From: an uncultured bacterium
Lineage (GTDB): Bacteria; Eisenbacteria; RBG-16-71-46
Length of the DNA: 64,000 nt
Direction: 5' to 3'
NCBI GenBank assembly: GCA_964542745.1
Contig: CAZIVR010000007.1
Coordinates: 379 to 64,378, forward strand
Below, in pieces: positions 32,428 to 54,972 of this stretch. The notes beneath the pieces were generated by a model, which saw only the letters and a list, made by a program, of their open reading frames with translations, had not been told where the DNA came from and made no database searches. The translations under genes and the position numbers were made by a program. Within the stretch, counting starts at the first letter, position 1. Every line of letters starts with the position of its first letter.

Positions 32428-32534
32428 GCATTTCGGCCCTCACCGGTTCCGTCCAAGGTTCCAGGCGAACGGAACTCCCACGCGCGGTCCGGCCGCCTCG
32501 CCGGCCACGACGGGGGAGACGGTGGAGGTGGAGG

Positions 32535-33455: not shown

Positions 33456-33464
33456 GAGACGGCC

Positions 33465-35600: not shown

Positions 35601-35679
35601 ACGGAAGCCGCGGGCGGGCGAACCCCGCCGGGATCCCGGGCGGCGAACCCCCCGGGACCCGGCGAACGAAGGAGAAGCC

Positions 35680-36063: not shown

Positions 36064-36070
36064 GCCGGCG

Positions 36071-37080: not shown

Positions 37081-38463
37081 TCAGCTGCCGCTGACCGTCA
37101 TCTCCGAGATCAGGAGCGTGGGGCTCGAGACCGAGCCGTCGAGGTCGAGGTCGTTGCCCACCGCGACCACGTTCTTCAGCATCTCGAGCGACGTCGAGGC
37201 CACGGTCACGCCTTCCACCGGCCGGACCTTCTCGCCCTTCTCGATCCAGTGGCCCTGCGCCTGGAAGGAGTAGTCGCCGGTCACGTTGTTGAAGCCGAAG
37301 GAGCCCTGGTCGTCCATCAGGAACCCGCGGTCCACGCGGCGCAGGATCGCGTCCGGGGAGTCGGCGCCCGCCTCGAGGTAGAGATTGCCGTGGCCGATCG
37401 AGGGGGTCGAGCCGTAGCCGCGCACGGCGCTGGCGGTGGAGCGCGTCCCGGCGCGGCGGGCGTGGTAGGCGTCGTAGCAGAACATCGCGCAGCGGCCGCG
37501 GTCCACGAGCACGTTGCGGCGGCTCGCCACGCCGTCGCCGTCCACCGGCGAGGAGCCGGCGCCGCGCGGCATCAGGCCGTCGTCCACCAGCGTCACGAGG
37601 GGGGAGGCCACGGTCTCGCCCAGCTTCTCGCTCAGCCACGAGGAGCGCTTGATCACGCTCTCGCCGCTGAAGGCGTCGAACATCTCGGCGATCCAGCCCG
37701 CCGCGATGTCGGGATGGAGGATGACCGGCACGCGGGCGGTGGGAACCGGGCGCGCGCCGAGCCGCGACACCGCGCGGCGCGCCGCCTCGGCGGCGATCGC
37801 CTCGGCGGGCGGCAGGTCGGCGAGCCAGCGGCGGCTGCGCCCGTAGCCGCCGCTCTGCTGCTTGCCCGCGCCTTCGTCGGCGAGCGCCACCACGTAGGCG
37901 CCGATCGAGGTGGCCGAGTAGCCGCGGCGGAGTCCCGCGGAATTGGCGATCACGAACTGGCCGTCGCGGCTGCTCACGCCCACCGAGTCGGTGCGGCGCA
38001 CGCGCGGATCGTAGGCGAGCGCCAGCCGCTCCAGTTCGAGCGCGAGCGCGATCTTGCGCTCGGCCGGGAGCTCGACCACCGCCGGGTCGAACAGCGCGAG
38101 GTCGGCGGGAGGATCGCCGGCCTCGTCCGGGGTCACGACCCCGTTCCACGCGTCGGGCGTCGAGAAGCGGGCCAGCGCCACCGCCTGGCGGGCGAGGTTC
38201 TCGAGCGATTCGGGGCGCAGGTCGGTGCTCGACACGAATCCCTCGGCGCCGCCCACGAACACGCGCAGGCCGAGTCCGCGCGTCGCGCTCTGCTTGAGCG
38301 ACTCGATCGCGCCGTCCGAAACCTTGACCTTGAACGCCCGGGCGCTCTCGAGGCACGCCTCGGCCTGGTCGGCCCCGGCGCGCCGCGCGCGCGCGAGCAC
38401 GTCCTCGGCGACGTCGAACAGCGCGCGGTCCACCCGCTCGTCGGCGACGATCCCGGCGCTCAC
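37081..38463 (-). CDS. pmbA: PmbA/TldE (peptidase U62 family; modulator of DNA gyrase / microcin-processing partner)
   Basis: The U62 fold is homologous to the upstream TldD. The GTG start overlaps the tldD stop codon (GTGA). The 985-aa track ORF 37081..40038 is this gene plus an out-of-frame junk extension across tldD. Confidence 0.75.
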   Translation of the reverse strand: MSAGIVADERVDRALFDVAEDVLARARRAGADQAEACLESARAFKVKVSDGAIESLKQSATRGLGLRVFVGGAEGFVSSTDLRPESLENLARQAVALARFSTPDAWNGVVTPDEAGDPPADLALFDPAVVELPAERKIALALELERLALAYDPRVRRTDSVGVSSRDGQFVIANSAGLRRGYSATSIGAYVVALADEGAGKQQSGGYGRSRRWLADLPPAEAIAAEAARRAVSRLGARPVPTARVPVILHPDIAAGWIAEMFDAFSGESVIKRSSWLSEKLGETVASPLVTLVDDGLMPRGAGSSPVDGDGVASRRNVLVDRGRCAMFCYDAYHARRAGTRSTASAVRGYGSTPSIGHGNLYLEAGADSPDAILRRVDRGFLMDDQGSFGFNNVTGDYSFQAQGHWIEKGEKVRPVEGVTVASTSLEMLKNVVAVGNDLDLDGSVSSPTLLISEMTVSGS

Positions 38464-39902
38464 GTGGCGGTCCCCCCGACCGTGATCTCCGTGAAGCGCA
38501 CGGTCGGCTGGCCCACGCCCACCGGCTTCCACTGGCCGTCCTTGCCGCACGAGCCGGTGGTGCCGTCGATCGCGAGGTCGTTGGCCACCGCGTCGATCTT
38601 GAGCATCGCGTCGTTGCCGTTGCCCGCGAGCGTGGCGTTGCGGACCGGATGGGTGAGGCGCCCCTTCTCGATCGCCACCGCCTCGGTGACCTGGAACGAG
38701 AAGTTGCCGTCGGCCGGGTTCACCGAGCCGCCGCCCAGGGCCTTGCAGTAGAGGCCGCGCTCGACGCCCGCGATCAGGTCGCCCGGATCGTGCGGACCCG
38801 GCTCGATGTAGGTGTTGGTCATCCGGCACAGCGGGAACTCGCGGAAGCTCGAGCGGCGGCCGTTGCCGGTCGGGCGGTGGCCCGTGAGGCGGGCGTTGAG
38901 GAGGTCCCACATGTAGCCGGTGAGGATGCCGTCCTCGACCAGCACCGTGCGCTGCGCCGGCGTGCCCTCGTCGTCCACGCGGAACGAGCCGCGGCTGTGC
39001 GGGACGAGCCCCGAGTCCACGATCGTCACGCCCTTCGCGGCCACCGCCTCGCCGAGCTGCGTGGCGCGGATCGAGGTCTTCCGGCGGATGGTGTCGCCCT
39101 CCATGCTGTGGCCGAAGCACTCGTGCACCATGACGCCGCCCCAGCCCGGCGCGACCACCACCGGGTAGGAGCCGGCCTCGGGCTCGCGGGCCGAGAGCAG
39201 CGTGACCGCGCTCGCCGCCGCCTGGTCGGCGACCTGCTCGGGCGTGCGCACGCGGTCGAAGTAGTCGGCCTCGACCGAGCCGCCCGCGGCGGCGAAGCCC
39301 GACTGGCGTTCGGCGCCCTCGATCGCGAGCGCGGTCACGGTGAGCCGAGTCAGGTAGGTGCGGTCCTCGGCCCACAGCCCGTCGCTGTTCGCGACCACGA
39401 AGCTCTTGGAGGCGTCGGCGAGGCCGACCCACACCTCGTGGACGCGCGGGTCGTGGGAGCGCGCCCGGTCGTTCGCGCGCCGCACCACCGCGATCTTGTC
39501 CTCGGGGAGCCGCGAGGAGGGGAAGGGGGAGCGCAGCGTGAAGGGCGGCGGCGCGTCCACCACCCGGAAGGGGGCCGGGGGGCCGTCGTGGCCACCCGAG
39601 GTCGCGATGCGGGCGGCGACCCGGGCCGCCTCCCGCAGGTCGGCCGGGTCGAAGCCGTCGGCGAAGGCATAGCCGGTCTGTCCGGCCGCGATCGCGCGGA
39701 TCCCGACCCCCTGCGCGACCTGGTAGGACGAGGTGCGCAGCCGGTTCTCTTCGAAGTGGAAGCCGGTGTGGACGGTGTGCTCGCCGAACACCTCGGCGAA
39801 TTCGGCGCCCTTCGAGCGGGCGATGCGGATCAGCTCCTCCACCAGCTCGCGGGGGAGCTGGCCGGCCAGCGGGCCGCCGGAGGTCTCGGTATTGGGGGTC
39901 AT
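38460..39902 (-). CDS. tldD: TldD metalloprotease (peptidase U62)
   Basis: The conserved motif HECFGHSMEGD (HExxxH-like) at about 260 aa and the C-terminal GGGSVNPADGNFSFQVTEA motif. 480 aa. Confidence 0.85.
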   Translation of the reverse strand: MTPNTETSGGPLAGQLPRELVEELIRIARSKGAEFAEVFGEHTVHTGFHFEENRLRTSSYQVAQGVGIRAIAAGQTGYAFADGFDPADLREAARVAARIATSGGHDGPPAPFRVVDAPPPFTLRSPFPSSRLPEDKIAVVRRANDRARSHDPRVHEVWVGLADASKSFVVANSDGLWAEDRTYLTRLTVTALAIEGAERQSGFAAAGGSVEADYFDRVRTPEQVADQAAASAVTLLSAREPEAGSYPVVVAPGWGGVMVHECFGHSMEGDTIRRKTSIRATQLGEAVAAKGVTIVDSGLVPHSRGSFRVDDEGTPAQRTVLVEDGILTGYMWDLLNARLTGHRPTGNGRRSSFREFPLCRMTNTYIEPGPHDPGDLIAGVERGLYCKALGGGSVNPADGNFSFQVTEAVAIEKGRLTHPVRNATLAGNGNDAMLKIDAVANDLAIDGTTGSCGKDGQWKPVGVGQPTVRFTEITVGGTAT

Positions 39903-39992
39903 GGGCGCTCCCGATGGGCCAGCCGTGGCGAGGGAGCGCGCAGTCTATTCGCAGCGGTCCCAGCGCGCAACGTGGCCTGCCGATGTCGCTGT

Positions 39993-40037
39993 TGACCAAA
40001 AGGTCATCAGTCGAATACATTGTTGACCCAATGGTCA
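39993..40037. promoter_or_regulatory. Tandem palindromic operators TGACCAAAAGGTCA (39993-40006) and TGACCCAATGGTCA (40024-40037). The second overlaps the tetR start codon.
   Basis: Two TGACC-N4-GGTCA inverted repeats 31 bp apart, immediately 5' of a TetR-family gene. Confidence 0.6.
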
Positions 40038-40723
40038 CAAAAGAACATGCGGGAGCGAACCCGAGCGAAAGGCCGCAGGCGAATCACTCGCCGGTTCCTC
40101 GCTGGCGTCGCCGCAAGAGCGCCCGCCCGGCAGAGCTCGTGGACGCCGCCCTCGCGGTCTTCGTCGAGCGCGGCTACGCCGCCACGCGCCTCGCCGACGT
40201 GGCCCGGCACGCCGGGGTCACGAAGGGCACGCTCTACCTCTACTTCGACAACAAGGAAGCGCTCTTCAAGGCGATGGTGCGCGACCGGATCGTGGCCCAC
40301 CTCGCCGCGACCGAGCAGCTGGTCGAGGAGTTCGAGGGCGACGCGCGCGACATGTTCGTGCTGCTCATGGAACGCTGGTGGGCGCGGGTCGTCGAGGGGC
40401 CGATGTCCGGGCTCGCGAAGCTGGTGGTGGCCGAGGTCGGCACCTTTCCCGATCTCGCGCGCTTCTACCACGACGAGGTGGTGAGCCGGAGCCTCAAGCC
40501 CTTCGAGCACGCGCTCCGCCTCGGCATGGCCCGCGGCGAGTTCCGCCGCGTGGACCCGGCGATGGCGGTGCGGCTCACGGTCGCTCCCATGATGATGGCC
40601 GCGCTCTGGCAGCAGACGTTCGCGCGCTGCGTCGAGGGCGCCTACGTGGAGCCGAGGAAGTACTTCGAGACCCACGTGGACCTGCTGCTGGCCGGGCTGA
40701 CGGCGCCTCCCGCGCGCTCCTGA
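40031..40723 (+). CDS. TetR/AcrR-family transcriptional regulator
   Basis: N-terminal helix-turn-helix (AATRLADVARHAGVTKGTLYLYFDNKEALF). The start was chosen at the ATG inside the operator. The track ORF starts at 39914. Confidence 0.75.
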   Translation: MVTKEHAGANPSERPQANHSPVPRWRRRKSARPAELVDAALAVFVERGYAATRLADVARHAGVTKGTLYLYFDNKEALFKAMVRDRIVAHLAATEQLVEEFEGDARDMFVLLMERWWARVVEGPMSGLAKLVVAEVGTFPDLARFYHDEVVSRSLKPFEHALRLGMARGEFRRVDPAMAVRLTVAPMMMAALWQQTFARCVEGAYVEPRKYFETHVDLLLAGLTAPPARS

Positions 40724-40732
40724 CGTCCCGGC

Positions 40733-41146
40733 TTGAGCGGCCCCCGGGGCTCGACTAGCATCGGGCGCGCGGCCGCGTTCCATGGAGGTACCCGTTTGAA
40801 GCTCGACAGGCTGAACGCCGGCGCGCTCGCGGTCGGCGCGTTGCTGCTGCTGGCGGGCGGCCCCTGGCTGGTTCGCCAGCTCGGTTCCCTGCCGCATCCG
40901 ACGGCCCTCGCGGCCCGCGGCGGCGAGCGGATCGTCACCCTCGAGGTGGGCGGGATGACCTGCGGTGCGTGCGAGAGCGCGGTCAAGGGCCAGCTCGCGA
41001 CCGTGGCGGGGGTGAGCGCGGTGGAGGTGCGGGCCCGCGAGCGGCGCGCCTTCGTGGTCTGCGCGCCCGGCGTCGCGGACACCGCCCTCACGGCCGCGGT
41101 GCGGCGGGCGGGAGGCGGGTTCGTGGCGGAGGTGGCGGCCCCCTGA
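40733..41146 (+). CDS. Heavy-metal-associated (HMA) domain protein with an N-terminal TM/signal anchor (MerP/CopZ-like)
   Basis: GMTCGACE metal-binding motif in a ferredoxin-like fold (VTLEVGGMTCGACESAVKGQLATVAGVSAVEV). Hydrophobic N-terminal segment. The start may be the TTG at about 40797. Confidence 0.6.
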   Translation: MSGPRGSTSIGRAAAFHGGTRLKLDRLNAGALAVGALLLLAGGPWLVRQLGSLPHPTALAARGGERIVTLEVGGMTCGACESAVKGQLATVAGVSAVEVRARERRAFVVCAPGVADTALTAAVRRAGGGFVAEVAAP

Positions 41147-41321: not shown

Positions 41322-44135
41322 ATGCGTCGCATCTCGCTCGTGCTCGCGGTGGCGTTGCTCGCGTGCGGCCTCCTCGCCGCGCCGCGCTTCCTGATTTCCC
41401 GCGGCACCGGCGCCTCCGACTTCGTGCATTTCGAGTCGCCCCACGTTCACCCCGCCGACCTGACCCCGGCGCGGAACCGGCTGCTCGTGGTGAACACCCC
41501 CGACAACCGGCTCACGGTCTTCAACGTGACCGACAGCCTTCCCACGCGGGAGGCCGAAATCTTCGTCGGCCTCGAGCCGGTCTCGGTGCGCGCGCGCAAC
41601 GACAGCGTCGCGTGGGTCGTGAACCACCTCTCCGACGACGTGAGCATCGTCAACCTCAACACGATGCACGTGAAGGCGACCCTGCGCGTCGGCGACGAGC
41701 CCGGCGACGTGGTGTTCGCGGGCAGCCCGACGCGCGCCTACGTGAGCGTGGGCGGCGAGGACGCGATCAAGATCTACGACCCCGACAACCTGGCCACGCC
41801 GCCCACCGTGATCGCGCTCTCCGGGAGCGAGCCGCGCGCGCTGGCCCGGACCGCCGACGGGAGCAAGGTCTACGTGACGCTCTTCCAGTCGGGCAACCAC
41901 TCCACGCTGCTGAGCCCGCAGAAGCTGCCGCCCGACTCGGTCCCGGAGGACTTCGACCTCCCGATGGACCCGGGGCTGCCGGCCGCGCCGCACGTCGGGC
42001 TCGTGGTCCAGTCGCAGACCGGCGGGAACTGGTACGACATGTACGGCAACCTCTGGAACCACCACATCAAGTACGCGGTGCTGGAGCGCGACGTGATCGA
42101 GATCAACACCTCGACACAGGCGGTGGCGCGCACCTTCGGCAACTGGGGGAGCAACATCTTCGGCGTGGACGTGAGCCCCACCGACTCGCGCATCTCGTAC
42201 GTCGGCACCGAGGCGCGCAACCTGCTGCGGTTCGAGCCGCGCATCCTCGGCTACACGGTCGAGACCAATGCGGTGTTCGTGAATCAGGCCACCGGCGTCT
42301 CGACGCTGAGAAAGCTCAACCCGCACATCGATTTCGACACATCGCCCGGCACCCAGGCCGAGCACGACTCGGCGCTCGGCATCCCGACGGCGGTGGCGTT
42401 CTCGAGCGCCGGGAACCGCGCCTACGTCGCGGCGTTCGCCAACAACCGGATCGGCGTCCTGAATCCCGCCGGGGGCGCGGCGAGCACGATCCTCGGCCGC
42501 GTCCCGTGCGCCCCCGGGCCCTCGGGCATCGTGGTGGACGATCCCAACAACCGCCTGTTCGTGGTGGGGCGCTTCCACAACGAGCTCCAGGTGCTGTCGT
42601 CGTCGGACTTCCGCTCGATCTCGCGCCAGTGGATCGGCTTCGACCCGACGCCGGACCCGATCGTCAACGGGCGGAAATTCATGTACGGCGGGTTCACCTC
42701 GTCGCACGGCGACCAGGCGTGCGCCAGCTGCCACGTCTTCTCGGACACCGACGGCCTGGCGTGGGACCTCGGCGACCCGAACGGCGCCTTCGAGCCTCCG
42801 GGCGGGAGCCCGCCGGGCCTGCAGGGCTTCCACCCGATGAAGGGCCCGCTCGTGACCCAGACGCTGCGCGGCATGTCGGGAGTGGGCCCGCTCCACTGGC
42901 GTGGCGACCGCGTGAATCTCGCGGCGTTCAACAACGCGTTCCTCACCCTGCTCGGCCGCTCCGCGCCGCTCGCCGACAGCCAGATGACCGCGCTCGCCGA
43001 CTTCGCGATGCCGCTCGTCTTCCCGCCCAACCCGCGCCAGAACCTCGACCGCAGCATGCCCGACGCCCCCCCGGGCCAGGGGAGCGCGCTGCGCGGGCAG
43101 AACTTCTTCATGAACACGGTCGTGGACAGCGGGATGACCTGCTCGGACTGCCACTCGGCCGCGTCGTTCGGCCCGGGCACCAACGGCATGATGGTGCGCG
43201 CGGCGCACATCGGCCAGTCGCAGGACCTCAAGGTTCCGCAGCTGCGCAACCTCTACAAGAAGACCAATTTCCTCGACGTGCCCGGGGCGCAGAACAAGCG
43301 CGGGTTCGGTTACACGCACGACGGATCGGTGGACCTGACCTCGAAGTTCAACCACGGGCCGGGCTTCTCGTTCGGCCCCGACTCCGCGACGGCCGCCGAC
43401 AACCGGCGCGACCTCGAGGCGTACCTCTACGCGTTCGACACGGGGCTCGCACCCGCCGTCGGCTACCAGCTCACCTTCCACGGAACCAACAACTCCGACC
43501 CGACCGCGCTGTCGCGCCTCGACACCCTGACCGCGCAGGTCACGGCCGGAAACTGCGATCTCGTGGCGCACGGCCGCGTGGGAGGGCAGCCGCGCGGCTG
43601 GCAGTACGTGGGCAGCGGCGAGTGGAAGCCCGACAAGGCGGCCGAGACCAACGTGACGACGGCCGCGCTCGTGGCGCTGGCCGGGCTCGGCAGCGAGCTC
43701 ACGGTGACCGGCGTCCCGGGGGGCAGCGGGCTCCGGATGGGGCTCGATCGCGACCGCGACACCTACTTCGACGGCGACGAGCGCGACGCGGGAAGCGACC
43801 CGGGCAACCCGGCCTCGACGCCGCTCAACGTGAGCGTGACCCCGCGGGGCGCGGGCGCCACGCGACTCGGCACGATCGGGCCCAACCCGTTCCGCGGCTC
43901 CACCGAGGTGGGCTTCGCGCTGGCCCGCGCCGGGCGCGTGGACCTCGAGGTCTTCGACGTGCTCGGCCGCCAGGTCCGCACCCTCGCGCGCGGACGCTGG
44001 TACGAGGCCGGCACGCAGAGCCTGCGCTGGGACGGCCGCGCCGACGACGGGCGGGACGCGAGGGCGGGCGTCTACTTCGTGAGGCTTCGGACCGAAGCGG
44101 GACAGTGGTCCAGGCCGGTGGTCCGCGTGCGGTAG
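41322..44135 (+). CDS. Secreted YVTN-type beta-propeller fused to a di-haem cytochrome-c-peroxidase (CCP/MauG-like) domain, ending in the shared C-terminal sorting-type domain (paralogue A)
   Basis: GGGAGA ribosome-binding site. Signal peptide (MRRISLVLAVALLACGLLAAP). YVTN-like repeats (LLVVNTPDNRLTVFNV...). Two CXXCH motifs (CASCH, CSDCH) about 140 aa apart, with CCP hallmark motifs (PQLRNL...GFGYTHDGS). C-terminal tail (GPNPFRGST...VFDVLGRQVRTL...WDGRADDGRDARAGVYFVRL...RVR). Confidence 0.75.
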   Translation: MRRISLVLAVALLACGLLAAPRFLISRGTGASDFVHFESPHVHPADLTPARNRLLVVNTPDNRLTVFNVTDSLPTREAEIFVGLEPVSVRARNDSVAWVVNHLSDDVSIVNLNTMHVKATLRVGDEPGDVVFAGSPTRAYVSVGGEDAIKIYDPDNLATPPTVIALSGSEPRALARTADGSKVYVTLFQSGNHSTLLSPQKLPPDSVPEDFDLPMDPGLPAAPHVGLVVQSQTGGNWYDMYGNLWNHHIKYAVLERDVIEINTSTQAVARTFGNWGSNIFGVDVSPTDSRISYVGTEARNLLRFEPRILGYTVETNAVFVNQATGVSTLRKLNPHIDFDTSPGTQAEHDSALGIPTAVAFSSAGNRAYVAAFANNRIGVLNPAGGAASTILGRVPCAPGPSGIVVDDPNNRLFVVGRFHNELQVLSSSDFRSISRQWIGFDPTPDPIVNGRKFMYGGFTSSHGDQACASCHVFSDTDGLAWDLGDPNGAFEPPGGSPPGLQGFHPMKGPLVTQTLRGMSGVGPLHWRGDRVNLAAFNNAFLTLLGRSAPLADSQMTALADFAMPLVFPPNPRQNLDRSMPDAPPGQGSALRGQNFFMNTVVDSGMTCSDCHSAASFGPGTNGMMVRAAHIGQSQDLKVPQLRNLYKKTNFLDVPGAQNKRGFGYTHDGSVDLTSKFNHGPGFSFGPDSATAADNRRDLEAYLYAFDTGLAPAVGYQLTFHGTNNSDPTALSRLDTLTAQVTAGNCDLVAHGRVGGQPRGWQYVGSGEWKPDKAAETNVTTAALVALAGLGSELTVTGVPGGSGLRMGLDRDRDTYFDGDERDAGSDPGNPASTPLNVSVTPRGAGATRLGTIGPNPFRGSTEVGFALARAGRVDLEVFDVLGRQVRTLARGRWYEAGTQSLRWDGRADDGRDARAGVYFVRLRTEAGQWSRPVVRVR

Positions 44136-44356
44136 CCGTTCCCACCAGGCCCCGCGCCGCGGCCAGGAAGAAACCGCGGCTCGAGCCCCGCACGCTCCGT
44201 CGCCCGGACGCGCCCCCCAGCGCCCGGGCGGCATCTTTTGGGCCGCGGGCCGCCCGGCACCCCGCGCGGGGCCCGGCACGCGGGGGCCGTCCCGCGCCCC
44301 GCCGCGCGAGAAAGCCCTCGCCCCGAACGCCGCGATCGGCGAGAATCTTCCGCGCC

Positions 44357-47167
44357 ATGCGCCGACTCCCCCCGCTCCTGCTCCTCGTGGCACTCCTGGC
44401 CGGAATCCTCGCCGCGCCGCGTCACCTGATCTCGCGCCCGCGCGGCGCGCTCGACGCCTCGGCCGACTTCACGCACTTCGAAAGCGGCCACGTCCGCCCC
44501 GCGACGCTCACGCCGTCCGGCGACCGGCTGCTCGTCGTGAACACGCCCGACAACCGGCTCAGCGTCTTCGACCTCACGGGCGGCGCGCCGGCGCGCATCG
44601 CGGACATCCCGGTCGGGATGGAGCCGGTCTCGGTGGCCGCCCGCGACGACAGCACGGCGTGGGTCGTGAACCATCTCTCGGACGACGTGAGCATCGTCAA
44701 CCTCAACACGCTCCACGTGCGGGCGGTGCTGCGCGTCGGGGACGAACCCGCCGACGTGGTGTTCGCGGGGTCCCACGCCTACGTGAGCGTGTCGCAGGAA
44801 GACGCGGTCAAGGTCTACGACGCGGCGACCCTCGCGCCCGTCGGATCGCCGATCGCGATCCAGGGGCGCATGCCCCGCGCGCTCGCGGTGAGCGCCGACG
44901 GCTCGCGCGTGTTCGCGGCCGTGTTCCACGCCGGCAACCGCACCTCGGTGCTGTCCTTCACCGAGGCCAACGATTCGCTGCCCGCGCCGAATCCCCCGCT
45001 CGGGCCCGGGGTGCCGCCGCCGCCCGACGTGGCGCTCATCGTGCAGCAGCAGGGGAACGACTGGCGCGACGAGGCGGGCAAGCTCTGGAACTCGAAGATC
45101 AAGTACACGCTCGCCGAGGTGGACGTCGCCGAGATCGCCACCGCCACGCGCACCGTGGTGGCGAGCCACCGCGACATGGGCACGGTCAACTTCGGGCTCG
45201 CGGCCGCGCCCGACGGGCGCCTCGCCCTCACCGCGACCGAGGCGCGCAACCTGGTGCGCTTCGAGCCCAACCAGCGCGGGCACACGGTGGACACCCGGCT
45301 CTCGATCGTGAGCGCCGGCGCCGTGACCAACAACGACCTCAATCCGCACGTGAACTACACGGTCACGCCGGGCCCCTCGGGCGAGGCCGACTCCTCGCTC
45401 GGAACACCGACCGGCGTGGCGTGGTCCTCGAACTCGCAGCGCGTCTACGTGACGTCGCTCGCGAGCGGGCGGCTCGGCGTGCTGTCGGCGCCCGCCGGGG
45501 GCGGCGCCACGATCCTCGCGCGGGTGCCCACGGCCGCGGGCCCGACCGGCGTGGTGGTGGACGACGCGCGCGGCCGGATCTACGTGGTGGGCCGTTTCCG
45601 CAACGAGCTGCAGACGCTGCGCAGCTCGAACTTCTCGGAGGTGGCGCGCGCGTGGATCGGGTTCGACCCCACGCCCGACGAGATCGTGAACGGCCGCAAG
45701 TTCTTCTACGGCGGCTTCACCTCGGGCCACGGCGAGCAGTCGTGCGCCTCGTGCCACGTGTTCGGCGACTTCGACAACATCGCGTGGGACCTCGGGGACC
45801 CGCAGGGCGCCTTCCAGCCCAGGCCCCCCGGGCAGATCGATCCCTTCCTCGGCGGCTTCCACCCCATGAAGGGCCCGATGACCACGCAGAGCCTGCGCGG
45901 GCTGCCGGGCACCTTCCTGCTCCACTGGCGCGGCGACCGCTCCGACCTGTTCGCGTTCAACGCCGCGTTCGTCGGGCTGATGGGCCGCTCGACGCAGCTC
46001 CCGGACAGCGAGATGACGGCGTTCGCGGACTTCGTGCTGCCGCTCGTCCACCCGCCCAACCCGAACCAGTTCCTCGACCGCGCGTTCCGCGACGCGCCGC
46101 CCGGCGTGCCGAGCGCCCGGCGCGGGCGGAGCTTCTACTTCAACAATCCCGTGGACGGCCCGCTCACCTGCAACGGCTGCCACGCCTCGCTCAACTTCGG
46201 GCCCGGCACCAACGGCCAGGTGATCAACCGCATCGCGCTGCGCGACTCGCAGGACATCAAGATCCCGCACGTCCGCAACATGTACCGGAAGACCGGCTTC
46301 ACCGACCTGCCGGGCGTGGTGAACAAGCGCGGCTTCGGCTTCACCCACGACGGGGCCATCGACAACCTCTTCAACTTCCTGAAATTCCCCGGCTTCGCGT
46401 TCGCCGCCGGGGCGACCGGCGACAACCAGCGCCGCGACGTCGAGGCGTTCCTGCTGTCGTTCGACACCGGGCTCGCCCCGGCGGTCGGCTACCAGATCGC
46501 CTTCACCGGCGGCTCGAGCAACACCGATCCCACCGCGATCGCGCGCCTCGACACGCTCAAGCGCTGCTTCGACTCGACGTGGGTGGACGTGGTGGCGCAC
46601 GGTCGCGTGAGCGGCCAGCCGCGCGGATGGAAGTACCTGGGCGGCGACCTGTGGCAGCCCGACAAGGCCGCCGCGCCGAGCGTCACCTCCGCGGCGCTGC
46701 GCGCGCTCGGCGGGCCGGGCAGCGAGGTGGTGGTGATGGGCGTGCCGCGCGGCGCCGGGACGCGCATGGGCGTGGATCGCGACCGCGACGGCTTCCGCGA
46801 CGGCGACGAGCGTGACGCGGGGAGCGATCCGGGCAATCCCGCCTCGACGCCGGCCAACGTCGGCGTGGATCCGCCGCGGGCGCTGCCCGGCGACTCGTTT
46901 GGATCGCTCGGCCCGAATCCGTTCCGCGCCTCGACCGCGGTCGCGTTCGCGCTGGCGAGGCCCGGTCCGGTGGACGCCGCGGTGTACGACGTGATGGGCC
47001 GCGAGGTTCGCGTGCTCGCCGGCGGACTCCGCCTCGAGGCGGGAACGCAGCGGCTGGTGTGGGACGGCCGCGACGCCGCCGGACGCGAGGCGGGCGCTGG
47101 GGTGTACTTCGTTCGGGTGCGGACTTCGACGGCCCACTGGGTGCGGCCGGTCGTGCGTGTGAAATGA
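44357..47167 (+). CDS. Paralogue B of the beta-propeller/di-haem peroxidase secreted protein, about 60% identical to A
   Basis: Signal peptide (MRRLPPLLLLVALLAGILAAP). Same architecture (CASCH...CNGCH, PHVRNM...GFGFTHDGA). C-terminal tail. This is the real 3' half of the 1934-aa track ORF 41363..47167. Confidence 0.75.
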   Translation: MRRLPPLLLLVALLAGILAAPRHLISRPRGALDASADFTHFESGHVRPATLTPSGDRLLVVNTPDNRLSVFDLTGGAPARIADIPVGMEPVSVAARDDSTAWVVNHLSDDVSIVNLNTLHVRAVLRVGDEPADVVFAGSHAYVSVSQEDAVKVYDAATLAPVGSPIAIQGRMPRALAVSADGSRVFAAVFHAGNRTSVLSFTEANDSLPAPNPPLGPGVPPPPDVALIVQQQGNDWRDEAGKLWNSKIKYTLAEVDVAEIATATRTVVASHRDMGTVNFGLAAAPDGRLALTATEARNLVRFEPNQRGHTVDTRLSIVSAGAVTNNDLNPHVNYTVTPGPSGEADSSLGTPTGVAWSSNSQRVYVTSLASGRLGVLSAPAGGGATILARVPTAAGPTGVVVDDARGRIYVVGRFRNELQTLRSSNFSEVARAWIGFDPTPDEIVNGRKFFYGGFTSGHGEQSCASCHVFGDFDNIAWDLGDPQGAFQPRPPGQIDPFLGGFHPMKGPMTTQSLRGLPGTFLLHWRGDRSDLFAFNAAFVGLMGRSTQLPDSEMTAFADFVLPLVHPPNPNQFLDRAFRDAPPGVPSARRGRSFYFNNPVDGPLTCNGCHASLNFGPGTNGQVINRIALRDSQDIKIPHVRNMYRKTGFTDLPGVVNKRGFGFTHDGAIDNLFNFLKFPGFAFAAGATGDNQRRDVEAFLLSFDTGLAPAVGYQIAFTGGSSNTDPTAIARLDTLKRCFDSTWVDVVAHGRVSGQPRGWKYLGGDLWQPDKAAAPSVTSAALRALGGPGSEVVVMGVPRGAGTRMGVDRDRDGFRDGDERDAGSDPGNPASTPANVGVDPPRALPGDSFGSLGPNPFRASTAVAFALARPGPVDAAVYDVMGREVRVLAGGLRLEAGTQRLVWDGRDAAGREAGAGVYFVRVRTSTAHWVRPVVRVK

Positions 47168-47212
47168 GTTCCGCGTGAAGTTCCTCCGGCCGCCCCGAAG
47201 CTCGAGCCCACC

Positions 47213-50200
47213 GTGATTCGCGCGCCGCGCCGTGCCGGGATCCTCGCCGCCGTCCTGCTGCTCACCGCTTCGGCCGCGCACGCGGGGCGCGGCGCGTTCG
47301 CCTCGGATCCGGCCGCGCCGCTCTGGAGTGCCCCCGGCGCCCCGGTCGCGGGACTCCCGGCCGGCGCCGCGTTCCCGGGCTCGCTCACCGGTGCCACGCC
47401 TTCCGCATGCGACGGCTGGCTGCCGAACCGCGGACAGATCGCGGACGGGCACGGGCAGGTGGCGAGGGACGTGCTCTTCGCCACCCGTTTCCCCGGCGGT
47501 CGCGTCTACCTCACCACGCGCGGGTTCACGCACCTGTTCACGTCGCGGGTGGGCGAGGAGGAGCCCAAGGTCGCGGGCCGCGAGCGGAAGCGGCCGCCCT
47601 CCCGGCTCGTGGAGTGGAGCCGGCTCGACCTCGAGCTGGTGGGCGCCACGATCCGTCCCGAGGCCGCCGTGCCGGGCCGGGTGCGGGCCGACCGCGGCGT
47701 GTCGCACTTCTACCTGCCGCACTGCCCGGACGGTGTCCTCGACGTTCCTTCCTACGGCGAGGTGGTGCTGCGCGAGGTGTATCCGGGCGTGGACTGGGTG
47801 GTGCGGGGCGACGCGGAGACCGGCGCGCACCACGACTTCGTGGTGAAGCCGGGCGGCGACCCCGCGCGGATCCGCTTCGAGATCTCGGGCGCCACCGCGA
47901 TCGAGCTCTCGCCCGACGGCCGCGGGCTCACGCTTCGCACCGCGCTCGGCGACGTGCGCGAAGGGGCGCTGCTCTGCACCCAGGGCGAGGGGAAGCGGCC
48001 GGTGGCGGCGCGCTTCCGGCTCGAGGGCCGCACGCTGTCGTTCGACGTCGGCGACTACGACCGCGCCGAGCCGCTGGTGATCGACCCGCCGATGGTGTGG
48101 TCCACCTATTTCGGCGGCGAGGACTTCGACGGCCCCAACACCGTCGTCTGCGACAACGCCTCGGGCTCCGTGTACGTGGTCGGCTACACCGCCTCCGACA
48201 CGCTCCAGACGCTGGCGGGCGGTTACTACCAGGGCGTGATGGGCGGCTCGGTGGACGGCCTGATCCTCAAGTTCAGCCAGCTCGGGGCGCTGCAGTGGGC
48301 CACGTACTACGGAGGCGGCGGCGGGGACTACTGCACCGACGCCGCGCTCGATCCTTCCGGCAACCTGTTCGTTTCGGGAGGGACGGGATCGAGCAACTTC
48401 CCGGTGCAGTTCCTCTCGGGCGCCTACAACCAGCTCACCACCGGCGGCGGGCAGGACGGGTTCTTCCTCAAGTTCAACTCGCTGGGCGCGCGGCAGTGGG
48501 CCACGTACTACGGCGGGAGCGGCGACGACCAGGCCAACGGGATCGCGTGCGATCCGAACGGCAAGCTCTACGCGTGCGGGCAGGCCATGTCCACCGACCT
48601 GCCGCTCCAGAACCCGGGCGGGGGCGCCTTCATGGACCTCACGCGCGGCGGCAGCGAGGACGCCTTCGTGGCGCGCTTCGGCACGCTGCACTCGCTCGAG
48701 TGGGCCACCTACGTGGGCGGGGACTCGCTCGAGAACGCGGCGGGGATCACCGTGAACGCGGGCCGGCTCTACGTGACCGGCTACACGTGGTCCCCGGACT
48801 TCCCGCTGCTCGACCCGCTGGGCGGCGCCTACTTCCAGCCCACGCTCGCCAGCGGCCAGGACGCCTTCTTCACCCAGTTCACGCCGGCCGGCGTGCTCAC
48901 CTGGTCCACCTTCTACGGCGGGGACGACCTCGACACCGCCAACGACCCGGTGATCCTGCCGAACGGCAACGTGACGATCCTCGGCTTCAGCAAGTCCACC
49001 GATCTCCCCACCTGGTTCCTCGGGGGCGCCTACAACGTCGCGGCGCTCTCGGGCGGGTTCGACCTCTACCTCGCCGAGTTCACGCCGGGCGGCGTCCCGG
49101 TGTGGGGCACCTACTTCGGGGGCAGCGGCGACGACTGGCTGATCCGCGGCGAGGGCAAGCCGATCACCGTGAGCGCCGCGGGCGAGGTGGTGATCACCGG
49201 CGTCACCGCGTCGAGCGACTTTCCCACGCTGAACCCGGGCGGCGCCTACTTCGACAACACGTGGGGGGGCGGAACGGACGCGATCCTCGCCCGCTTCCTG
49301 CCGACGCGCGCGCTCTCGTGGTCCACCTACCTCGGCACCACCTCCACCGACTTCGGCAACGGCGTGGCCTTCGGCACCGGCGGCTGCCTGTTCGCGACCG
49401 GCGAGTCGTGGGAGTACGGGTCGTTCCCGATCGTGAATCCCGGGCTCGGCGCGCTGGTGGACTCCACCAACCACGGCATCGACGACATCTACGTCACCAA
49501 GTTCTGCACCCCGAATTCGGCGTGCTGCCAGGACTTCACCTGCGTGCCGGCGCTGTCGCAGGCGCACTGCTTCAGCATGGGCGGCACCGCGTTCTATCCC
49601 AACCAGCCCTGCGCGAACGTGTCGTGCACGATCCTGTGCACGATCTGCGGGAAGAAATTCCACGACCTGAACCGGAACGGCGTGCAGGACTCGGGCGAAC
49701 CCGCGCTCGCGGGCTGGACCCTCGAGCTCTACTACCCGAACGGGCCGCTCTACGCGACCACGGTCACCGACGGCTCGGGCAACTACTGCTTCAGCGCGAT
49801 CCCGTGCGGCACGTGGGAGGTGCGCGAGCGCAACCAGTCCGGCTGGGTCGCGACCGCCCCGGCCGGCGGTGTCCACAGCGTCACGCTCGGCACCGGCTCC
49901 ACCCAGAACGGCGTCAACTTCGCCAACTTCGGATGCGCGCCCTCCACGCCCTGCATCCCGTCCCCCTCGTGGCTCGCGGCGTGGTGGCCGCTCGGCGACG
50001 GCCCGGGCTCATCCGTGGCGGCCGACGCCGCGCACCTCGATCCGGCCCGGAACGTGGCGCAGCTCGAGGGCGGGGCGTCGCTCGACTCGACGTCGCTCGG
50101 CGTCGCGACCGCGGCCGACGGCGCGCGCGTGCCGCACGCGGGCCAGCTCGGCCTCGACTTCGGCGACGGATCGTTCTCGATCGCCGCGTGGCTCCGGGCC

Positions 50201-51682
50201 GAGGCGGGTACCGCGAGCCCTCGCGTGGTCGCCGCGCGTCGCGCGCTCGACGGCGGCACGGGCACCGTGAAGGGCTGGGCGATCGCGCTCGACGGGATGC
50301 AGGCGGTGCTCGACCTGCACGCCGGCGGCTCGGCCCAGTCGGCGCCGGGTCCGGACGTGGCGGCGGGGACGTGGTCGCACGTCGCGGTCACCCTCGACCG
50401 CGCCGCGGGCCAGGGCCGCTGGTACCTGGACGGCGTCCACGTTCCGTCCTTCGACTTCACGCCGCTCGCGGGCGACGTCACCGCCGCGGCCGACCTGACC
50501 CTCGGCCGCAACGACCCGGGCTACGCCCCGAGCGCGGGCTTCGACGGGAGGATCGGCGACCTGGCGCTCTTCACCGCCGCGCTCTCGAGCGCCGACGTGG
50601 CGAAGGCCGCGGGTCCCGGGCTCCCGCCGATCGGGTTCTGCCCCGAGTACGTGGCGTTCCCCGCCGTGACCACGATCTGCCAGGGCCAGACCTCGAGGCA
50701 GGTTTGCTTCACGATCTGCAACTCGAACCCGACCGCCCAGACCTACCAGTGGTCGCTCGCGGGGCTCCCCTCGGGCGCCGGCTGCACCGACGCGGGGCCG
50801 CTCAGCTTCAGCCCCGCCTCGGGCAGCGTCACGGTGCCCGCCGGGGGCTGCTCGACGCCGATCTGCGTCACGATCCAGCGGCCCGCCGGCTTCACCGCCC
50901 AGAACGCGACCTCGTGCTTCGCGTTCACGTTCCTGAACGCGGCGACCGGGCGCTGCCAGACGCGCACCGGGAAGCTGCGCGTGGACAACAGCTGCTGGTG
51001 CGCCACACCGCCGGCCGCGGTGACCAACGTGGCGGCGCGGATCCCGGCCGGGACCGCGATCGGGATCGGGCTCGGCCACCCGTGCGACCCGCCCGCGACG
51101 CTCGCCTACCGGCTCACCCCCGAGTGGCTCGACCCGGAACACCCGGACCCCGTGGCGCTCAGCCTCAATGGCCTGCCGCCCGGCATGCCGGTCACCGGCG
51201 AGATCACGCTCGGTTCGGGATCGCCGGGCCAGGTGGACGTGGTGGCGCGCTACCCGAAGGGCTACGACCCCTTCGCGCTCTACGAGATCGTGCTCGAGGC
51301 CGACACCGACGGCGACGGCATTCCCGAACGGCTGGCCGGCGCGGTGGTGCGCCCCGCGTACGATTCGGTCGCGAGCACCGCGGTGCCCTCGGGCCCCGGC
51401 GTCGCGGCGCCGGCGTCGCTGCGCGCGAGCCCCAACCCGTTCTTCGCGCGGGCCAGCGTCGAGCTGGTGCTGCCGCGGGGCGGCGACGCCGAGGTGACGG
51501 TCTTCGACCTGGGCGGCCGCCGGGTGCGCACGCTGGCGCGCGGGAGCTTCGAGCCGGGCGAACACCGGCTGGCCTGGAACGGCCACGACGACGCGGGCCG
51601 CCGGGTTCCCGCCGGAATTTATTTCCTGCGCGCCGTCGCCGATGGGCGTAGGCTCGAGGCGAAGCTGGTGAAGTTGAGATGA
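47213..51682 (+). CDS. Giant secreted multidomain protein. Order: N-terminal domain, SBBP beta-propeller repeats, SdrD-B/CarboxypepD_reg-like Ig domain, LamG/concanavalin-like domain, further Ig-like domain, shared C-terminal sorting-type domain.
   Basis: Signal peptide. At least eight SBBP-type repeats (W.TY.GG.GDD...G...D..GN.YV.G.T.S.DFP). Ig-like CTICGKKFHDLNRNGVQDSGEPALAGWTLELY. LamG-like DGSFSIAAWLR...GRWYLDGVHV...GRIGDLALF. C-terminal tail SPNPFFARASV...VFDLGGRRVRTL...WNGHDDAGRRVPAGIYFLRA...KLR. Confidence 0.7.
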   Translation: MIRAPRRAGILAAVLLLTASAAHAGRGAFASDPAAPLWSAPGAPVAGLPAGAAFPGSLTGATPSACDGWLPNRGQIADGHGQVARDVLFATRFPGGRVYLTTRGFTHLFTSRVGEEEPKVAGRERKRPPSRLVEWSRLDLELVGATIRPEAAVPGRVRADRGVSHFYLPHCPDGVLDVPSYGEVVLREVYPGVDWVVRGDAETGAHHDFVVKPGGDPARIRFEISGATAIELSPDGRGLTLRTALGDVREGALLCTQGEGKRPVAARFRLEGRTLSFDVGDYDRAEPLVIDPPMVWSTYFGGEDFDGPNTVVCDNASGSVYVVGYTASDTLQTLAGGYYQGVMGGSVDGLILKFSQLGALQWATYYGGGGGDYCTDAALDPSGNLFVSGGTGSSNFPVQFLSGAYNQLTTGGGQDGFFLKFNSLGARQWATYYGGSGDDQANGIACDPNGKLYACGQAMSTDLPLQNPGGGAFMDLTRGGSEDAFVARFGTLHSLEWATYVGGDSLENAAGITVNAGRLYVTGYTWSPDFPLLDPLGGAYFQPTLASGQDAFFTQFTPAGVLTWSTFYGGDDLDTANDPVILPNGNVTILGFSKSTDLPTWFLGGAYNVAALSGGFDLYLAEFTPGGVPVWGTYFGGSGDDWLIRGEGKPITVSAAGEVVITGVTASSDFPTLNPGGAYFDNTWGGGTDAILARFLPTRALSWSTYLGTTSTDFGNGVAFGTGGCLFATGESWEYGSFPIVNPGLGALVDSTNHGIDDIYVTKFCTPNSACCQDFTCVPALSQAHCFSMGGTAFYPNQPCANVSCTILCTICGKKFHDLNRNGVQDSGEPALAGWTLELYYPNGPLYATTVTDGSGNYCFSAIPCGTWEVRERNQSGWVATAPAGGVHSVTLGTGSTQNGVNFANFGCAPSTPCIPSPSWLAAWWPLGDGPGSSVAADAAHLDPARNVAQLEGGASLDSTSLGVATAADGARVPHAGQLGLDFGDGSFSIAAWLRAEAGTASPRVVAARRALDGGTGTVKGWAIALDGMQAVLDLHAGGSAQSAPGPDVAAGTWSHVAVTLDRAAGQGRWYLDGVHVPSFDFTPLAGDVTAAADLTLGRNDPGYAPSAGFDGRIGDLALFTAALSSADVAKAAGPGLPPIGFCPEYVAFPAVTTICQGQTSRQVCFTICNSNPTAQTYQWSLAGLPSGAGCTDAGPLSFSPASGSVTVPAGGCSTPICVTIQRPAGFTAQNATSCFAFTFLNAATGRCQTRTGKLRVDNSCWCATPPAAVTNVAARIPAGTAIGIGLGHPCDPPATLAYRLTPEWLDPEHPDPVALSLNGLPPGMPVTGEITLGSGSPGQVDVVARYPKGYDPFALYEIVLEADTDGDGIPERLAGAVVRPAYDSVASTAVPSGPGVAAPASLRASPNPFFARASVELVLPRGGDAEVTVFDLGGRRVRTLARGSFEPGEHRLAWNGHDDAGRRVPAGIYFLRAVADGRRLEAKLVKLR

Positions 51683-51711
51683 CCGGGAGGCCCTGAGTCG
51701 GGAGGCGTCCC

Positions 51712-52962
51712 ATGAAACGCACGATGCTCGCGCCCACGATGCTCGCGCTCGCAGCCCTCGTTGCGGCGGCGGGCTGCCGCCGCCCCTTCGCGCCCGAGGG
51801 CGAGCGCGCGGCCCGCGGGGCCAACGGCGAAGCGGCCCGCAGCGCCGCCGCCCGCGGATGGATGGCGTGGCTCCGCTTCTCGGGGGCCACGGTGTCGCTC
51901 GACCGGAACCTCGAGCCGCGGCCCGACAGGCCCGGCTGGACGGACGTGCTCGCGCCGGGCCCCGAGGGCGCGCCGCCCGACACGGTGCCCGCGTTCGCCC
52001 GGCTCGAGTGGGTCCGCTGGAGGCCCGCGGCCGCGGGCCGCTCGGAGCCGCCGGCGGCCGGGCGCGCCGGGCGCGGCGAAGGCGACGACCCGCACGCCCG
52101 CGAGCCCGGGCCGGCGTTCGCGCCGGGCCACCACGAAATGGTGCTGACGGCGCCGGCCCACGCGGGCGGCGGCACCGTCACCGCACGCTTCTTCTCCGGT
52201 TTCGTGCCGGGCGTGTGGTGGGCCGGGCCCGACCCCGACCGCTGGCCGGCCGCGAGCGACGGCGACGGGCGCGCGGTGGACGTCACCGACTGGGCGAGCC
52301 TCGCCACCGTGCCGGCGTGGCCCCCGGACGGGCGCGCCACCTTCGGCGCCGACTCGTTCCGCGTGATCCCCTCGCGGCGGGCTCCGGTGGGAGGGAACTT
52401 CGACCGGCGCACCTTCTACGAGATCCACGGCAACCGCATCTACGCCCGCGAAGAGAACGACACCGTGCACCGGGGAGCGTGGATCGTGGTGAGCCTCGGC
52501 GGCTACGACCGGGACTCACCGTATTCGCCGCTGGTTGACCCGCTCGATCCCGCCCTGCCGGCCGGCTACGCGGCCGATCCGGGGCGCTACCCCGTGCTGA
52601 ACCCGGCCGGCCTCGAGGGCTCCCCGATCGGGTTCCGGGTTCGCGTCTCGATCAAGCTCCCCGACGGCCGGATCGTGCGGCTGCCCGCGGGGCCCACGTT
52701 CCCGAACTTCGATCCCACGTCGGTCTTCCGCCAGCCCCAGGTGCTGGGCTACTGGCCGGCCCAGCTCGAGGGCCGCGCCTACGTCGAGGTGCGCGCGGTG
52801 GACGCGCACGGGCTGCTCTCGCCGGCGCTGCCGGACCCGGTCGCACTCGCGGACCGCGTGGACGCGGGCGGCGGAACTCCCCGCGAACGGCTGGAGCGGC
52901 GCCGCATCCTCACCTTCCGGATCGCCGCGCCCGCCCAGGCGAGGACGGTCGCGGCGAACTGA
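51712..52962 (+). CDS. Hypothetical lipoprotein encoded immediately after the giant secreted protein
   Basis: Signal peptide with lipobox (LAALVAAAGCRRP). Non-biased composition in the C-terminal two thirds. Confidence 0.45.
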   Translation: MKRTMLAPTMLALAALVAAAGCRRPFAPEGERAARGANGEAARSAAARGWMAWLRFSGATVSLDRNLEPRPDRPGWTDVLAPGPEGAPPDTVPAFARLEWVRWRPAAAGRSEPPAAGRAGRGEGDDPHAREPGPAFAPGHHEMVLTAPAHAGGGTVTARFFSGFVPGVWWAGPDPDRWPAASDGDGRAVDVTDWASLATVPAWPPDGRATFGADSFRVIPSRRAPVGGNFDRRTFYEIHGNRIYAREENDTVHRGAWIVVSLGGYDRDSPYSPLVDPLDPALPAGYAADPGRYPVLNPAGLEGSPIGFRVRVSIKLPDGRIVRLPAGPTFPNFDPTSVFRQPQVLGYWPAQLEGRAYVEVRAVDAHGLLSPALPDPVALADRVDAGGGTPRERLERRRILTFRIAAPAQARTVAAN

Positions 52963-54791: not shown

Positions 54792-54972
54792 GGGGGCGTC
54801 GGTCAACGGCCCCATGAGCTCTCCACTCCCTGCGCCGGAGGTATTCGAGCCCTGCAGGCCGTGATTTCAGGGCGTGACAGGGGCCCGGCTGCGGCTCATG
54901 CTGATTGGCACCCCGCCATTGGCGCGGCTTGAACGCAGCCCGGACGCCGTACCCGTATCGAGCATTTCCTTG

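Follow-up and report, generated by a model that had tools for sequence, protein, structure and literature searches.

Two adjacent genes in a 64,000-nt stretch of DNA from an uncultured soil bacterium of the Eisenbacteria (contig CAZIVR010000007.1; hereafter the window) encode proteins in which a seven-bladed YVTN-type beta-propeller is followed by a two-haem domain. The proteins belong to a well-defined, uncharacterised enzyme family and do not represent a new kind of system. On the best reading of the sequence comparisons, the family is distantly homologous to the beta-gamma module, in its fused form, of hydrazine synthase (HZS), and thereby to the di-haem cytochrome c peroxidase (CCP)/MauG superfamily; within the HZS beta-gamma arrangement the two proteins are distinguished by an added sandwich domain and a sorting tail. 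The family and the architecture described below are very likely correct, and a rough probability of 0.4 is assigned to the whole reading, according to which the gene products are oxidising two-haem enzymes of the cell surface related to HZS beta-gamma.

The two genes and their domain organization

The following positions in the window are occupied by the two genes:

41322-44135 (+): gene 1, 938 codons including the stop codon, 937 amino acids (aa)
44357-47167 (+): gene 2, 937 codons including the stop codon, 936 aa, in a frame different from that of gene 1

Both genes are real. Their GC contents at codon positions 1, 2 and 3 are 0.66/0.50/0.96 (gene 1) and 0.70/0.52/0.96 (gene 2), a coding signature that matches the pattern of the genome, and the translation of gene 1 is identical to a database protein (P0001). 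Because the G+C content of the window is 74%, long open reading frames (ORFs) are found in every frame, including two that overlap both genes, at 41363-47167 (+) and 44072-49876 (-); these are shadow ORFs and not genes, and their identical length of exactly 1934 aa appears to be a coincidence. A promoter and terminator scan was uninformative. The two proteins are 57% identical over their full length (BLASTP). A previous inspection of the DNA letters (the sequence-only reading) had placed the pair correctly, and its sizes of 938 and 937 aa and identity of about 60% are here corrected to the values given above.

The features of gene 1, with the residues of its product, and the corresponding sites of gene 2 are:

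41322-41393 (+): residues 1-24, MRR and a hydrophobic helix, predicted Sec signal or signal anchor (sequence, AlphaFold2 model)
41424-42632 (+): residues ~35-437, seven-bladed YVTN/lactonase-type beta-propeller
42240-42263: propeller loop with paralogue-specific residues 307-314 (equivalent loop in gene 2)
42639-43457 (+): residues ~440-712, two-haem CCP/MauG/HZS-gamma-like domain
42720-42734 (+): haem motif 1, C467-A-S-C-H471, aligned with the N-terminal catalytic haem of CCPs and with haem gamma-I of HZS
42762-42776 (+): W481-D-L-G-D485, with D485 at the aligned position of the CCP distal His
42894-42908 (+): family signature H525-W-R-G-D529
43140-43154 (+): haem motif 2, C607-S-D-C-H611, aligned with the electron-transfer haem and with the second CXXCH of CcpA and HZS gamma
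43314-43325 (+): T-H666-D-G segment, aligned to PYFHDG of CCPs
43467-43715 (+): residues 716-798, beta-sandwich
43728-43820 (+): residues ~803-833, acidic DRDRD...DGDERD linker resembling the bacterial TSP3 calcium-binding repeat
43863-44135 (+): residues 848-937, immunoglobulin-like (Ig-like) C-terminal domain, similar to FlgD_ig and to type A domains of the type IX secretion system (T9SS)
45743-45757 (+): gene 2 residues 463-467, haem motif 1
46169-46183 (+): gene 2 residues 605-609, haem motif 2
from about 46904 (+): gene 2 C-terminal tail

An AlphaFold2 model of the gene 1 product, computed on an alignment of 68 full-length homologues, reached a mean predicted local distance difference test score (pLDDT) of 87 and a predicted template modelling score of 0.86. 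From the N terminus it consists of a helix (residues 2-24), the propeller (about 45-437), a mostly helical two-haem region (about 445-705), the beta-sandwich (716-798; strands with pLDDT >90), the acidic linker and the Ig-like domain (848-935), and the order in the gene 2 product is the same. The YVTN repeat model TIGR02276 scored 30.0 in gene 1 and 40.0 in gene 2 against a cut-off of 27.85, and a lactonase-type propeller was recognised in the N-terminal half of each protein with Pfam and NCBIfam models. The domain order proposed by the sequence-only reading (signal peptide, YVTN propeller, two-haem module, C-terminal tail) was thus confirmed, as was its spacing of about 140 residues between the two CXXCH motifs, which amounts to 140 residues in gene 1 and 142 residues in gene 2, with no further CXXCH in either protein. 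A lipoprotein reading of gene 1 (LLAC, residue 15) was considered and rejected since the Cys is not conserved.

Conservation was followed in two alignments, one of the 68 Eisenbacteria homologues and one of 49 members of the broader family. Haem motif 1 is invariant in 68/68 and 49/49 sequences, and haem motif 2 is likewise invariant in both sets. Invariant or nearly invariant in both are also the signatures S-x-H-G-x-x-x-CxxCH, WDLGD, PMKGP, HWRGD (the H, R and D without exception, the W nearly so), Q-x-x-K-x-P-x-LRN-x-Y-x-K and THDG. The only conserved Cys residues are the four of the haem motifs and C745 in the sandwich. In the 68-homologue alignment the propeller is as conserved as the haem domain. 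The beta-sandwich always lies 3' of the two-haem domain in the family and falls within the profile of the Eisenbacteria two-haem domain (A2, see below) in most of the listed representatives. For the acidic linker of gene 2, PF18884 gave an E-value of 0.0046, which is below threshold.

Two copies are also present in five other contigs, and in every one of these (5/5) the first copy resembles gene 1 more closely and the second copy gene 2; other Eisenbacteria genomes carry a single copy. The duplication is therefore old, with both copies retained. Fixed differences between the two paralogue lineages are found at only five positions, three of which (gene 1 residues 307, 311 and 314; R/N, Y/H, E/D) lie in the one propeller loop listed above, a candidate specificity or interface determinant as judged from the alignment. 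Since all core residues are kept in each copy, both gene products are probably active enzymes.

Placement of the two-haem domain

A search of the Protein Data Bank (PDB) with the single sequence gave no CCP match for the two-haem region, and profiles were therefore needed, namely A2 and a profile of the broader family (A4). With A2, Shewanella CcpA (3o5c) was matched at an E-value of 1.3e-4 in a collinear alignment (17-286 to 24-297) with both CXXCH motifs and the HDG in register. With A4, HZS gamma was matched at 5.3e-13 in two collinear segments spanning both haems, followed by MbnH (6e1c; 1.2e-7) as the second-best di-haem match in the PDB, CcpA (3.2e-5), Nitrosomonas CCP (1iqc; 4.1e-5) and BthA (6v59; 2e-3); the matches to MbnH and BthA were limited to the segment around the first haem motif. 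The Pfam family PF03150, which the sequence-only reading had named as a check, scored 19.4 and 19.6 bits in genes 1 and 2, below the gathering threshold of 25.6 and only over the segment around haem 1, but was matched by 27 of the 49 broader relatives at E <= 1e-3 (best 1.1e-9). DUF1111 (PF06537), named alongside it, had no Pfam match in either protein at E <= 1. Because solved members are matched by the profiles and PF03150 is recognised in relatives, the two-haem domain is taken to be a divergent member of the CCP/MauG superfamily, in agreement with the earlier proposal.

The hallmark on which that proposal had leaned (PxLRN...GFGYTHDG) is present, the PQLRN...GFGYTHDG segment having been aligned by HMMER to VPTLRN...PYFHDG of Shewanella CcpA. 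W526 of the HWRGD signature is a candidate for the Trp between the two haems; it corresponds to the FWDGRA motif of CCPs only in a manual motif alignment, and the segment was aligned otherwise by HMMER. With the di-haem CCPs (PF03150; 3o5c, 1iqc) the proteins have in common the two CXXCH motifs about 140 residues apart, the P-x-LRN and HDG segments and possibly the bridging Trp, while they differ from them by an insertion of about 30 residues after haem 1 (the PMKGP segment), by the fusion to a propeller and by the secretion tail. Propeller fusions were not found in the CCP/MauG sequence-network paper. MauG, MbnH and BthA belong to the same superfamily; however, no partner substrate genes as in mau or mbn operons lie beside genes 1 and 2, the MbnH family model TIGR04039 scored 12-18 bits against a cut-off of 363, and no conserved Tyr is found at the aligned position of the sixth haem ligand of MauG, Tyr294.

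Comparison with hydrazine synthase

Apart from a generic YVTN protein matched by the propeller, HZS beta and HZS gamma are the proteins of known structure to which the respective halves are most closely related. In HZS beta and gamma (5c2v; fused as HzsBC in Scalindua), as in genes 1 and 2, a seven-bladed YVTN propeller is followed by a CCP-like two-haem domain, and the CASCH...WDLGD motif is common to HZS gamma (WDLGDE) and to the proteins described here. Glu122 of HZS gamma acts at a haem propionate (PMC12607021). Cys165 of HZS gamma forms a third covalent haem link and Asp168 lies over haem gamma-I (PMC12758564, PMC12607021), whereas no conserved Cys or Asp is present at the equivalent place in the family of genes 1 and 2. 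Further differences are the roughly 250 extra residues of the latter (beta-sandwich, acidic linker and sorting tail) and their predicted export to the surface, in contrast to the anammoxosome location of HZS. The NCBIfam models for HZS matched the propeller only, with 41-49 bits for NF052340 (cut-off 560) and 30-39 bits for NF052342 (cut-off 1250), and no gene for an HZS alpha homologue was seen among the Pfam-scanned neighbours in the window or in the related Eisenbacteria loci.

Fused HZS beta-gamma homologues were reported in 2025 to be widespread outside anammox bacteria (PMC12758564), a group that may include the propeller and two-haem family analysed here. These homologues are without the key HZS residues and carry a Trp between the haems (PMC12758564); with W526 as the candidate, genes 1 and 2 likewise appear to have Trp and not His at this place. 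The view of the sequence-only reading that the architecture is not well described therefore holds in part: the combination of propeller and two-haem domain is the HZS beta-gamma arrangement, of which fused homologues are on record.

Family size and distribution

The propeller and two-haem family is very large and uncharacterised. A search with the full-length architecture gave 3713 matches, the best 120 of which are proteins of about 930-950 aa with 55-80% identity, nearly all from Candidatus Eisenbacteria and one from a Candidatus Udaeobacter. An exhaustive search with a profile of the two-haem domain and the sandwich yielded 3036 representatives of clusters formed at 50% identity, and for 1087 of these the E-value was <= 1e-30. 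The location of this module within the protein varies, as does the protein length (about 170-1800 aa, with fragments at the lower end), and the propeller is present in about half of the sampled relatives. The relatives carry tails of extracellular type, namely TSP3 (TSP_3/TSP3_bac), dockerin, PKD, Calx-beta, DUF4214, FlgD_ig and galactose-binding-like domains. When one genome per species was searched, at least 600 stretches were matched, at least 598 of them encoding a relative. The best 80 are mostly from Phycisphaerae and other Planctomycetota; cultured Myxococcus (Myxococcota) and Corallococcus are among them as well, together with Rhodanobacteraceae, Thiobacillus, Acidobacteriota, Dehalococcoidia and others. 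The 914-aa homologue of Myxococcus eversor has its domains in the same order behind a standard cleavable signal peptide and stops at the acidic linker, without the Ig-like tail. No curated NCBIfam model for the haem domain covers the family, and the names given in the sources are generic ("YVTN family beta-propeller protein").

C-terminal tail and predicted localization

The C-terminal ~85 aa were matched by PF13860 (FlgD_ig) with scores of 27.9 in gene 1 and 27.7 in gene 2, just above the threshold of 27, and by TIGR04183 with 23.1 and 22.6, at or just below the threshold of 23; both tail models had been suggested by the sequence-only reading. With the T9SS type A and FlgD_ig tails of the Fibrobacteres-Chlorobi-Bacteroidetes (FCB) group the tails have in common their length of about 85 residues, their position at the extreme C terminus and the PNPF...GVYFVR pattern, and they differ in that the scores are borderline. 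The unrelated protein encoded immediately downstream at 47168-51682 ends in a tail with 38% identity (E 9e-20) to that of gene 1, and FlgD_ig tails are present on other proteins in two of the related loci (L002 and L089, see below). Because the same tail is carried by unrelated proteins both locally and in related loci, the domain behaves as a sorting module. Together with the extracellular-type tails of the relatives, the shared tail favours export beyond the periplasm, and an extracellular or surface location is rated as moderately likely on these sequence features. In the window and the flanks of the related loci no genes for type IX secretion came to light, no search aimed at them having been made, and no paper naming both Eisenbacteria and type IX secretion was found in the literature.

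The downstream protein itself (47168-51682, +; about 1400-1500 aa) contains DUF7948, SBBP propeller repeats, SdrD_B and LamG domains in addition to the FlgD_ig/T9SS-like tail, and is probably a surface protein of adhesin type, as judged from its domains.

Genomic neighbourhood in Eisenbacteria

The context of the genes was compared with seven other distinct Eisenbacteria places (L001, L002, L004, L087, L088, L089 and P0057; eight if the near-duplicate L003 is counted). The recurring order starts with two TldD/PmbA genes on the opposite strand and an optional set of genes for a TetR regulator, an outer-membrane factor, a membrane-fusion protein and an MFS pump; it continues with a gene for a small HMA protein, one or two copies of the propeller and two-haem gene, and genes for a P-type ATPase, a 3-keto-disaccharide hydrolase-like protein and an arginase. 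In the window the following neighbours were identified:

32415-36769 (+): Mtr-like module, consisting of an MtrA-like multihaem cytochrome, an MtrB/PioB porin, a monohaem cytochrome c and a NapC/NirT tetrahaem protein
39914-40723 (+): TetR-family regulator with a TetR_N-type helix-turn-helix; the true start is probably later
40733-41146 (+): small HMA protein (PF00403), one transmembrane or anchor helix followed by GMTCGAC; conserved upstream neighbour
51697-52962 (+): insertion ORF without Pfam match
53007-54791 (+): insertion ORF of 594 aa without Pfam match, with coding third-position signal
54874-56736 (+): insertion ORF of 620 aa without Pfam match, with coding third-position signal
56783-59233 (+): P1B-4-type P-type ATPase (SPC and HEGST motifs, Pfam); first ATG at 56858

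The HMA gene lies upstream in the window, in L002, L087, L088 and L089 (motif check) and in P0057 (Pfam only), and is missing from this place in L001 and L004. All HMA proteins that were checked have one anchor helix followed by GMxCxxC, and by the positive-inside rule the HMA protein is probably periplasm-facing, as MerP is. In the window it starts 10 nt after the TetR gene; in related loci the genes for the outer-membrane factor, the membrane-fusion protein and the MFS pump lie between the two. In three places the upstream TetR gene is accompanied by tripartite-efflux genes.

An ATPase with SPC and HEGST motifs is encoded downstream in the window, L001, L004, L087, L088 and L089, and P0057 has a P-type ATPase. 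The P1B-4 subtype comprises Co/Fe/Zn-type exporters such as PfeT, CtpD and CzcP. At its N terminus the ATPase of the window is extended by about 200 residues that include a His-rich HFHHGD stretch, an unusual feature among P1B-4 pumps. In P0057, L004, L087, L088 and L089 the ATPase gene is adjacent or near-adjacent, and in the window it is located 9.6 kb downstream of gene 2, separated by an insertion that consists of the giant DUF7948/SBBP/LamG protein and the three ORFs without Pfam match. The stretch of the ORFs 53007-54791 and 54874-56736 has a G+C content of 61-70%, compared with 74% for the window, and the insertion is possibly recently acquired DNA. Of the metal-related flanks described by the sequence-only reading, the TetR and HMA genes do adjoin the pair, and the P1B ATPase gene does not.

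The gene content of the Mtr-like module is that of Mto/Pio Fe(II)-oxidation and Mtr clusters. Multihaem genes are also found near the L088 copy. At the syntenic position in the other Eisenbacteria loci examined the module is absent, and it therefore looks like a lineage-specific insertion. A functional tie between the pair and this porin-cytochrome module, proposed by the sequence-only reading, was rejected as a conserved feature for the same reason. Upstream of the pair, at 37081-39944 (-), two adjacent genes for TldD/PmbA-type metallopeptidases occupy a position at which they are also found in most of the related Eisenbacteria loci, and a gene for a peptide substrate was not seen near them. 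Farther upstream (12142-19106, +) lie genes for a thioredoxin-domain protein of the DsbH type, the thiol-disulfide transporter DsbD and a Kelch-repeat protein of 936 aa; the last of these (16296-19106), equal in length to the gene 2 product, had been considered as a third paralogue and was ruled out on account of the Kelch repeats. In L002 the two paralogues are separated by an aquaporin (MIP) gene at 12906-13541 and followed by two genes for methionine sulfoxide reductases at 17538-22316, which is a possible hint of an oxidative-stress setting.

Proposed function and alternative explanations

According to the proposed mechanism, the gene products would be exported c-type cytochromes of about 100 kDa. 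The N-terminal signal would carry the protein across the inner membrane, haems would be attached at the observed motifs C467xxCH and C607xxCH, and the Ig-like C-terminal domain would direct the folded protein from the periplasm to the cell surface. By homology, the N-terminal haem, without a distal His of the CCP type and packed on the propeller, would be the catalytic site, and the C-terminal haem together with HWRGD (W526) may relay electrons or oxidising equivalents. At haem 1 a peroxide or an O2-derived oxidant would be activated, and an external reductant would be oxidised at the interface of propeller and haem domain. In Eisenbacteria this reductant would most likely be a reduced metal ion, for example Fe(II), that leaves the cell through the P1B-4 pump encoded nearby; metal and peroxide would then be detoxified together. 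To our knowledge almost all characterised enzymes of the CCP/MauG type use peroxide, HZS gamma being the exception, and at the cell surface no source of electrons for a reduction is obvious; oxidising chemistry is preferred on these two grounds. Oxidising chemistry of the peroxide type is accordingly given slightly less than even odds, and a metal as the substrate is regarded as doubtful.

Several observations weigh against this reading. In the HMMER alignment with CcpA an Asp is found at the first His of the GHH loop, the distal His of CCPs; the NPKEM loop of CcpA, which holds the catalytic Glu, has no counterpart in the two-haem domain; and no Met is aligned with the Met ligand of the TMAD motif of CcpA. 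Since none of these three is kept, peroxide chemistry is not assured, and the canonical peroxidase mechanism implied by the sequence-only reading was not borne out. An AlphaFold model of residues 428-800 alone, computed on an 18-sequence alignment, had a pLDDT of 46 and was unusable, and the scores of the tail lie at the thresholds of the models. The metal link, a conserved neighbourhood within Eisenbacteria, was missing in other phyla: in a motif scan of 82 loci no P-type ATPase motif and one HMA motif were found, and all-against-all BLAST of the flanking ORFs revealed no recurrent neighbour beyond the gene and shadow ORFs. Even in Eisenbacteria, genes for arginase, 3-keto-disaccharide hydrolase and TldD/PmbA, which are unrelated, are kept alongside, and insertions accumulate between the HMA gene, the propeller and two-haem gene and the ATPase gene; the adjacency may therefore be inherited gene order and not an operon. 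The metal and electron-conduit story is thus weakly supported.

The products could instead be ordinary peroxide-scavenging di-haem CCPs that draw on periplasmic or surface cytochromes as electron donors, for instance by way of the Mtr-like conduit, and reduce H2O2 to water with the propeller as a scaffold. Such a role would suit the superfamily membership of the two-haem domain, the multihaem, porin and NapC genes 4.5 kb upstream, the multihaem genes near the L088 copy and the oxidative-stress genes in L002, but PF03150 remains sub-threshold in both proteins, the distal His, NPxEM loop and Met ligand are not kept at the aligned positions, the Mtr-like module is absent from other Eisenbacteria loci, and the conservation of the propeller, equal to that of the haem domain, speaks against a purely passive role; this explanation is considered unlikely. 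An extracellular oxygenase or peroxygenase of organic compounds (humic, aromatic or polyisoprenoid), with the substrate bound by the propeller, would have a precedent in the rubber oxygenase RoxA, a secreted CCP-like di-haem enzyme. The occurrence of the family among degraders of soil and sediment (Myxococcus, Corallococcus, Phycisphaerae, Acidobacteriota), the tails known from secreted enzymes (dockerin, galactose-binding-like, PKD) and a gene standing alone without partner genes all speak for it, yet RoxA was not matched in any PDB search, no catabolic genes lie nearby and no feature points to a substrate, which leaves it quite unlikely.

Chemistry like that of HZS gamma, with reduction of NO (or nitrite) at haem 1 to hydroxylamine or a different nitrogen species and with a channel gated by the propeller as by HZS beta, is suggested by the identity of the closest solved relatives of the two halves and by the WDLGD motif. 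It is nevertheless rated as improbable, given the lack of an HZS alpha homologue nearby, of a conserved Cys or Asp at the place of gamma Cys165/Asp168 and of nitrogen-cycle genes in the neighbourhood, the propeller-only scores of the NCBIfam HZS models far below their cut-offs, and the absence of an evident electron supply at the surface for a three-electron reduction. Equally improbable is a maturase of the MauG/MbnH kind, whose high-valent haems would modify a protein or peptide docked on the propeller, perhaps the paralogue itself, with the two copies forming a heterodimer. The rank of MbnH among the di-haem PDB matches (second, E 1.2e-7), the Trp conserved between the haem motifs, the old tandem pair with both copies retained and the TldD/PmbA peptidase pair kept nearby are consistent with it, but the gene is single in many genomes, candidate substrate genes do not occur repeatedly beside family members in any phylum, and the aligned position of the sixth ligand shows no conserved Tyr or Met. 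Candidates for the sixth ligand of haem 2 are H525, H666, Y645 and K507.

The preferred reading, a surface oxidising two-haem enzyme related to HZS beta-gamma, can be extended by analogy with the pairing of CopA and CueO. There a P1B efflux pump is paired with an extracytoplasmic metal oxidase, and in Eisenbacteria a periplasm-facing metal binder, an efflux P1B ATPase and an extracytoplasmic redox enzyme are encoded together; CueO, however, is a multicopper oxidase and not a c-type di-haem protein, and CopA is a Cu(I) pump, whereas the Eisenbacteria ATPase is P1B-4 (Co/Fe/Zn type by SPC and HEGxT). A functional link would be drawn by analogy only. In this extended form the family would comprise previously unrecognised extracellular haem enzymes of the pre-anammox stock from which HZS beta-gamma came, and its Eisenbacteria members would play the part of CueO with haem as the cofactor, acting at the surface as a metal(II):peroxide oxidoreductase together with the P1B-4 pump and a periplasmic HMA chaperone; this extension is regarded as very unlikely in its entirety.

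Implications

The family is a good target for biochemistry, the more so because homologues are carried by cultured Myxococcus species. If its chemistry were solved, a function would be obtained for several thousand proteins of soil and sediment bacteria, including cultivable Myxococcus, that are generically named "YVTN beta-propeller" proteins. The role of the relatives of HZS beta-gamma outside anammox bacteria would be clarified as well, which bears on the origin of HZS. Should the link to an Fe/Co-type efflux pump in Eisenbacteria be true, it would represent a new coupling of metal export to extracellular redox detoxification.

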